A DNA stretch of 64,000 nt from Octopus vulgaris (Eukaryota). Below the pieces are notes generated by a model. That model had not been told where the DNA came from. It saw nothing but the letters and a program-made list of their open reading frames with translations, and searched no databases. Location: positions 7,750,001-7,814,000 of the forward strand of contig OX597839.1 in the NCBI GenBank assembly GCA_951406725.2, given 5' to 3'. The translations under genes were made by a program, and so were the position numbers. Positions 38,560-39,649 of this stretch are shown in pieces. The first letter of the stretch is position 1, and each line of letters starts with the position of its first letter.

Positions 38560-38649
<90 letters not shown>

Positions 38650-38940
38650 AAAAATGGTAAATAATTTTCCTGTGGTTTATCATGTAACCAACAATTATTT
38701 ACCGGTAAATTTCGGTATGTAAATACGACAAATTAATTGTCAAGACCTTTGTAAGGTTCAGTATATAGTAAAGAAAAAATAAGAAGGTTAACAGCAGGCT
38801 GTTTCACCTCATACCGAAGGAATTAAAAATGGCAGTCAAAGACCGTTTTTCCAATTTCTATAAGTGGAGAATCCAAAAACGAAGGCCCTTACGGCTCACA
38901 TACACAAAACCGGAGTGGCAAATATACGAATTCAGTCACT

Positions 38941-39021
38941 TACAGTTAATAGCGGACATATGTTTCTGGATCGCAAACGTGGAAATCAGTTTGAATTCCG
39001 TCATCGGCGCTATATTCGATA
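38941..39021 (-). ncRNA. Type I hammerhead ribozyme, inverted copy of 39363-39443
   Basis: Reverse complement of 39363-39443; two substitutions seen, both outside the core. Confidence 0.78.
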
Positions 39022-39362
39022 GCTTTACTAAATGCCACTTCTAATTCCTTCGGTATGAGGTGAAACAGCCTGCTGTTAACCTTCTTATTTTTTCTTTACT
39101 ATATACTGAACCTTACATACCGAAATTTACCGGTAAATAATTGTTGGTTACATGATAAACCACAGGAAAATTATTTACCATTTTTATTGAATTACCATGT
39201 GGATTCCTCATTCCATTACGATTACCCAGAAAGCGCGCATGGCAGAATTTTGGAGGGAAAATTTACGTTCCCAGTCGCCACTTAGTTTTAACATCTGCAC
39301 TCTTCCCCCCACTATCTGATGTCGCTGGGTCAGAAGTGAGGGCTAGTGGCATTTAGTAAAGC

Positions 39363-39443
39363 TATCGAATATAGCGCCGATGACGGAACTCAAACTGATT
39401 TCCACGTTTGCGATCCAGAAACATATGTCCGCTATTAACGGTA
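39363..39443 (+). ncRNA. Type I hammerhead ribozyme (core CCGAUGA, extended stem II)
   Basis: UAUCG/CGGUA plus AUAGCG/CGCUAU stem I; CCGAUGA; GGA...UCC enclosing a CAAAC/GUUUG hairpin; GAAA; palindrome ACAUAUGU; GUC, predicted cut after 39429. Confidence 0.8.
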
Positions 39444-39649
39444 AGTGACTGAATTCGTATATTTGCCACTCCGGTTTTGTGTATGTGAGCCGTAAGGGCC
39501 TTCGTTTTTGGATTCTCCACTTATAGAAATTGGAAAAACGGTCTTTGACTGCCATTTCTAATTCCTTCGGTATGAGGTGAAACAGCCTGCTGTTAACCTT
39601 CTTATTTTTTCTTTACTATATATATATACATATATATACATATATATAT

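Follow-up and report, generated by a model that had tools for sequence, protein, structure and literature searches.

A dispersed non-coding hammerhead retroposon of Octopus vulgaris with a Penelope-like pattern of paired insertion ends

A 64,000-nucleotide stretch of the Octopus vulgaris genome (hereafter the window; assembly GCA_951406725.2, contig OX597839.1, positions 7,750,001 to 7,814,000) contains two arms of one ribozyme-bearing sequence that face each other head to head within a microsatellite. What kind of element is this, and how did it come to be inserted in this form? The microsatellite is a (TA)n tract that flanks the structure on the left (38560–38645) and right (39617–39650). 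Using q for positions on a 549-nt copy of the family, the forward arm (39039–39622, plus strand) comprises q1–549 minus 32 nt, continues into q1–67, and stops at a TATATA motif, hereafter site A; it contains a 73-nt direct repeat (39033–39105 and 39550–39622) at a spacing of 517. The inverted arm (38643 or 38646 to 39039, minus strand) begins at q339, reads through the unit junction from q549 to q1, and ends at q183–186, hereafter site B. It pairs with 39345–39622 over 278 nt (98.9%), and at its end only it carries a 119-nt tail past site A (q68–186; 38643–38761).

The two arms meet at 39033–39039, where 6 of 7 nucleotides match both and may mark a microhomology join. The (AT)n sequence is absent between the arms, and both 3' ends run into it. 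An extra 32 nt in the inverted arm (38723–38754; q75–106), bounded by TGTAA repeats at 38718–38722 and 38750–38754, is normal for the family and has been deleted from the forward arm at this 5-nt direct repeat; the arms otherwise differ at 3 of 278 bases. Each arm carries a type I hammerhead. The forward copy (39371–39435) consists of stem I (39371–39376 with 39430–39435), CCGAUGA (39377–39383), GAAA (39418–39421), and a palindromic helix III of the dimer type (39421–39428), with a C-A mismatch at the base of helix II and a predicted cut after 39429; the mirror copy runs from 39013 to 38949 on the minus strand, with a predicted cut after 38955. In all of this the original prediction, made from the letters alone, proved accurate: the geometry of the arms, the displaced start of the inverted arm and its passage across the junction, the two hammerheads and the forward cut position, the extra 32 nt, and the (AT)n at both 3' ends are as it described them.

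Two further features of the locus can be added. A splice-donor-like GGTAAGT lies directly 3' of the forward hammerhead (39441–39447), and in Penelope elements an intron adjoins the hammerhead (PMC4209133). If positions 38762–39622 were transcribed through, the RNA would fold into a double-stranded stem of 278 bp, on which editing or silencing might act.

The structure belongs to a family. A search of the genome (2.8 Gb, 227 contigs) with the unit returned 987 candidates, and the best 40 of these contain 161 matches, in which full copies are mostly 546–549 nt long. The 15-mer core of the hammerhead occurs 140 times in the genome, compared with 0 for a control. Both counts indicate that the structure is not a product of chance. 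The unit length of 517 that the original prediction had given needs correction: the family unit is 546–549 nt, the 32-nt deletion junction occurs once in the genome, at the window locus, and the 517-nt form is therefore local to that locus. Deletions of at least 10 nt number 12 among 154 arms of the family, that of the window locus included.

The unit is non-coding. Its longest frame is 89 codons and matches no Penelope-like element (PLE) protein, and it lacks the reverse transcriptase (RT) plus GIY-YIG reading frame that defines an autonomous PLE. It folds better than shuffled sequences (z −3.85). Units stand up to 3.1 in tandem, each with a hammerhead, and one locus holds a tandem of 3 (L011). 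The window structure is thus one copy of a dispersed non-coding hammerhead retroposon, a non-LTR retrozyme. In common with the metazoan non-LTR retrozymes of two reports (PMC7229834; bioRxiv 10.64898/2026.07.22.740005), the family has tandem units that lack coding capacity and bear a single type I hammerhead apiece; its GC is low (39%, below the 45–50% that bounds such elements), and it is dispersed as monomers to short multimers and coexists with Penelope elements. At 549 nt the unit exceeds the 150–450 bp of the first report and falls inside the 51–972 bp of the second.

How such copies insert can be read from their ends. We started from 111 loci, of which 30 were taken for their score, 1 for its deletion junction, 56 mostly for the hammerhead 15-mer and 24 for a site-B motif, and kept 97 insertions after dropping 8 duplicates and 6 loci without a match; the sample, chosen by score or motif, is thus non-random. 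The 3' ends form two clusters 119 nt apart, at q67 (site A) and q186–188 (site B). An (AT)4 tract lies within 40 nt of 146 of the 154 3' ends and, in single-arm insertions, of 29 of the 40 5' ends, compared with 129 of 1195 background windows, which argues that the microsatellite is a pre-existing target; any target-site duplication is masked by this same sequence. The 5' ends are scattered over the unit, and 5 of the 154 come to within 5 nt of the cut site. Circularly permuted endpoints, which the original prediction had proposed to look for by aligning genomic copies, are accordingly found among 5' ends across the 97 insertions, whereas 3' ends are fixed at A or B.

The two sites are used as a pair. 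Among 57 head-to-head insertions, 32 join an A end to a B end, 1 is A+A, none is B+B, 22 have one other end and 2 have two. A+B thus accounts for 32 of the 33 insertions with both ends canonical (24 of the 57 have at least one non-canonical end); were the sites chosen independently, the binomial p would be 4e-9. In the sole A+A insertion, L062, site-B sequence follows beyond a deletion. Single-arm insertions (n = 40) end at A in 16 cases, at B in 18, and elsewhere in 6. Many non-canonical 3' ends fall at an internal TA (q478, q519, q40) and may represent minor priming sites or later erosion. At one locus, L074, both arms end at q478 and the flanks match, which may reflect a subsequent inverted duplication or a third, minor site. 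Microhomology could be scored at 28 of the 57 head-to-head junctions: 4 show at least 3 nt, where 6% would be expected, and 15 are negative.

We considered whether the window arms stem from two template variants, of 517 and 549 nt, as the original prediction had entertained, or from two independent insertions into the same microsatellite. The arms do differ, by 32 nt and 3 of 278 bases. However, the deletion junction is confined to this one locus and arms match by allele across the family, which speaks against two variants, and the lack of (AT)n between the arms and the 32-of-33 excess of A+B are unexpected of separate insertions. We regard either version as extremely unlikely.

Allele data bear directly on the template. 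Opposite arms of an insertion differ at 82 of 10343 bases (0.79%; 38 pairs, in 29 of which no other arm was closer than the partner), and tandem units at 102 of 12715 (0.80%; 50 pairs), excluding pairs with fewer than 80 shared columns. Over 43 polymorphic sites, 1668 of 1701 calls are identical between arms (995 expected), as are 1598 of 1611 between tandem units. Shared private variants point the same way, although 11 of 23 come from one under-sampled subfamily, and at L088 a 19-nt deletion is common to all three passes in both arms. Both arms therefore derive from one sequence variant, and the suggestion of two template variants is not supported; the arms would also match if a single master locus had supplied identical RNAs, or if gene conversion had acted between them.

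Matching arms would equally be accounted for by a single priming event after which the RT folds back onto its own cDNA to yield the inverted arm. In 19 of 32 A+B insertions one arm could indeed be contained in the other. In the remaining 13, the window locus included, the arms are non-nested, neither being contained in the other, and A+B arm lengths are uncorrelated (rho 0.015); at the window locus, moreover, 32 nt of the inverted arm have no counterpart in the forward arm. The non-nested cases refute fold-back as a general route, and we consider it quite unlikely overall. Two cDNAs primed from opposite strands of the (AT)n target, the core of the original prediction, instead accommodate the (AT)4 tracts at 3' ends, the non-nested arms and the lengths of the arms.

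Those lengths call for a template longer than a unit. Of 122 canonical arms, 96 are longer than a ribozyme-cut linear monomer would allow; 66 of all 154 arms exceed one unit, the longest reaching 3.1 units. Where units span the cut site, 142 of 145 show no deletion there, deletions being the only changes scored. Either a circular RNA or an uncut linear multimer could serve. In the latter alternative the same paired priming occurs on a transcript of a tandem master, with no circle and a dispensable ribozyme. Tandem sources exist, with 3 units in this family and about 9 in a 616-nt sister family (L172), and hammerhead mutations left insertion by an anole Penelope protein unaffected in vitro (PMC11167929). 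Against a multimer, tandem units are as alike as opposite arms and as concordant, as expected if one monomer were copied repeatedly; the hammerhead shows a compensatory change; and with the longest arm at 3.1 units, linear copying alone would be expected to shorten arrays. On balance we favour a circular template, and hold the linear multimer to be a possible but less likely source.

Public sequencing runs are compatible with both templates. In four runs (X1, X3, X5, X12), whose type was guessed and none of which is on record as RNA, we found a single 579-nt contig (549 + 30) in each of X3, X5 and X12, and a joint going back 549 in X1 and X12. Contig and joint fit a circle or a homogeneous tandem; a homogeneous tandem likewise collapses to a 579-nt contig. 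The 517-nt form was not seen in the four runs, in which no indels were listed and whose contigs drop rare variants. Two substitutions, at q484 and q497, are common to all four runs; the nearest genomic copies differ at 2 of 548–549 positions, and a double-motif search found the combination nowhere in the assembly. The changes are C to G and C to T, so ADAR editing was rejected as their source. That the 549-nt form dominant in these runs, which is closed, is an inherited circular RNA propagating without a DNA master, in the manner of a retroviroid, with genomic copies as Penelope-made fossils, strikes us as highly improbable. A master locus missing from the assembly or a population difference is likelier, and near-identity across four studies favours a DNA source.

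The hammerhead itself appears to be conserved for its structure. Across 82 loci its core is nearly invariant, while the helix III palindrome persists in alternative forms. The C3-G8 pair becomes U3-A8 in L088, and sister families change stem I with pairing retained. Judged by these aligned copies, the ribozyme is under structural selection, with a near-invariant core and covariation in the palindrome, C3-G8 and stem I. Modelled together, two copies pair by way of this palindrome, as dimer-type hammerheads do (PMC4209133). Departures from the canonical motif are a change of U4 to C and the C-A mismatch at the base of helix II. The monomer folds no better than shuffled sequences (z −1.08), and an Rfam search returned no hammerhead match, its scan of the window being swamped by microsatellite look-alikes. 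For comparison, 1 of 9 predicted Xenopus elements cleaved (bioRxiv 10.64898/2026.07.22.740005). The L088 copy represents a 79%-identical subfamily with a U3-A8 core and a 6-nt palindrome; its hammerhead resembles a motif near the 3' end of an abundant Penelope family with a 781-aa protein, a possible hint of ancestry.

Sites A and B may also be marked by structure. A conserved stem (UUCGGUAUG/CAUACCGAA; 39048–39128, plus strand) encloses hairpin 1 and site A. In 12 related sequences the 9-bp stem and inner hairpin around site A are kept, with two-sided changes in 6 of 20 pairs. A second hairpin, followed by a U-rich tract up to site B (39132–39194, plus strand), appears in single-sequence folds and is lost from the consensus fold. 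From these folds, A and B could be two similar recognition modules.

Which protein might recognize them? Elements encoding RT and GIY-YIG domains are abundant in this genome and carry the CX4CXXC linker that marks the Neptune and Nematis clades (PMC8557442), many with an intact 781-aa frame. Copies of three autonomous Neptune-type families terminate in (AT)n, some with a 30–40-nt tail and some lacking it. In 9 of 10 head-to-head copies one arm has the tail and the other does not, the exception (L223) bearing tails on both arms (B+B). We scored 150 of 6136 GIY-YIG candidates. None of 51 Penelope loci, from at least three families, showed homology to the unit, and unit matches in Penelope loci were separate insertions of sister families; a helper from these elements is therefore putative. 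A search by loose-end motif recovered a short relic only. One young Neptune-type Penelope with a 781-aa RT/endonuclease frame (L127:606–4287) also has an open frame of 300–480 codons, of no known family, upstream of that frame.

Might the copies instead be relics of the pseudo-LTR (pLTR) of a long coding Penelope that multiplied solely in the form of its truncated ends? They share target, tail and inverted arm with autonomous elements, and Xenopus retrozymes are reported to derive from pLTRs (bioRxiv 10.64898/2026.07.22.740005). Yet the 66 arms longer than one unit run seamlessly through the junction and hold no reading frame beyond 89 codons, and in contrast to retrozymes with pLTR homology, none was found here in the 51 Penelope loci. 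The original prediction had named copies that are always colinear ends of a coding Penelope as one outcome that would overturn it; Penelope protein matches lie near 5 of 97 insertions, and an in-line Penelope frame belongs to none of them. The one in-line candidate, at L106, ends in its own (TA)n, comes from a family without unit homology, and was set aside as an adjacent, separate insertion. A present-day pLTR relic is very unlikely, while ancient descent of the unit from a pLTR is likely.

We consider it probable that the 549-nt unit is a non-autonomous non-LTR retrozyme that a Penelope RT/GIY-YIG protein of the Neptune type mobilises in trans through Penelope-like integration. A tandem source copy would be transcribed, and dimer-type hammerheads would excise a monomer that is ligated into a circle. 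The Penelope protein would nick both strands of an (AT)n tract, the target seen at the insertions. Priming would start at site A from one nick and at site B, 119 nt away on the same sequence variant, from the other, as the end positions, their pairing and the shared variant suggest; a hairpin and a U-rich tract would precede each site on its 5' side. Each cDNA would extend over the variable distances observed, through the ribozyme site and often beyond one unit, and the two cDNA 3' ends would be joined head to head. At the window locus the 32-nt deletion would have arisen during or after insertion. With one hammerhead per strand, this copy is probably a dead end, and the locus is probably inert.

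Much of this signature is known from endonuclease-bearing (EN+) PLEs of the Neptune and Nematis clades, for which inverted 5'-truncated copies, often a one-sided tail, partial tandems and a (TA)n preference are reported (PMC8557442; PMC11167929; PMC4209133), as are a palindromic dimer-type hammerhead, two internal RT start sites, both-strand extension and a proposed circular template. The window arrangement is a standard Penelope insertion signature and is therefore less surprising than the original prediction held. The near-strict A+B pairing is the added element; inverted arms and one-sided tails were already known for Penelope. The present family differs from EN+ PLEs in lacking an open reading frame, in its 119-nt rather than 30–40-nt tail, and in having no G10.1-C11.1 pair, a pair noted for its high conservation among the hammerheads of PLEs. 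Non-autonomous Chlamys PLEs such as MRC1 are likewise multicopy, head-to-tail and PLE-mobilised, but resemble their helpers at the 3' end and have no canonical hammerheads (PMC8557442), whereas the octopus family has a hammerhead and showed no homology to a helper in the Penelope loci compared. In the consulted portions of the literature, metazoan non-LTR retrozymes are not described as having 3' ends fixed in pairs, an (AT)n target or inverted arms, all present here, and those portions contain neither a count of end pairing nor a retrozyme with inverted arms; such data may exist in older Penelope papers or in supplements. In vitro, a Penelope protein cuts both strands and extends them, starting at two internal sites; its start sites did not differ between strands (PMC11167929), which counts against the model proposed here.

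In L1 twin priming, both target strands prime cDNAs and an inversion results, the second primer annealing at a variable point near the end of the first cDNA. In the octopus family, by contrast, each arm starts at a fixed point, while the points at which the two arms stop vary independently of one another.

The case for Penelope mobilisation of animal retrozymes has been built on co-occurrence and homology, and here a retrozyme bears the full Penelope integration signature. Moreover, the origin of Penelope inverted pseudo-LTRs and one-sided tails is stated to be open (PMC8557442, PMC11167929). The octopus copies add a constraint, in that the start sites used by the two target strands are fixed, differ from each other and lie on the same variant. 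This pairing rule predicts an asymmetric two-site complex and makes the mechanistic question testable, with a 549-nt non-coding substrate carrying two defined modules and an intact 781-aa Penelope protein in the same genome.

The 616-nt sister family has 1542 candidates and a hammerhead with an 81-nt helix II region; its head-to-head insertions (n = 11, from a query that favoured B ends) comprise 6 A+B, 0 A+A or B+B, and 5 with one other end. Single insertions of this family reach about 9 units (L172:1066–6750) and about 7.6 units (L173:1993–6658), each at 99% identity, and in the latter, units of 604 and 615 nt alternate. Growth of arrays therefore also takes place in DNA, which counts against a purely rolling-circle reading. 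A more distant sister family (L147–L171) has 2048 candidates. About a dozen of 25 sampled copies, from a query that favoured them, are ~330-bp head-to-head derivatives with one shared junction and no hammerhead; here an inverted insertion was apparently amplified as a unit.

The window holds another ribozyme element at 60200–61147, with a 360-nt unit in ~2.6 copies, an (AT)n end, CCGAUGA hammerheads at 60531 and 60891, a relative in L148, and no homology to the 549-nt unit. A loose pattern finds further hammerhead-like cores in the window at 2240, 3379 and 45198 (plus strand) and at 56927, 57975 and 59762 (minus strand), which are probably the ends of other Penelope-related repeats.
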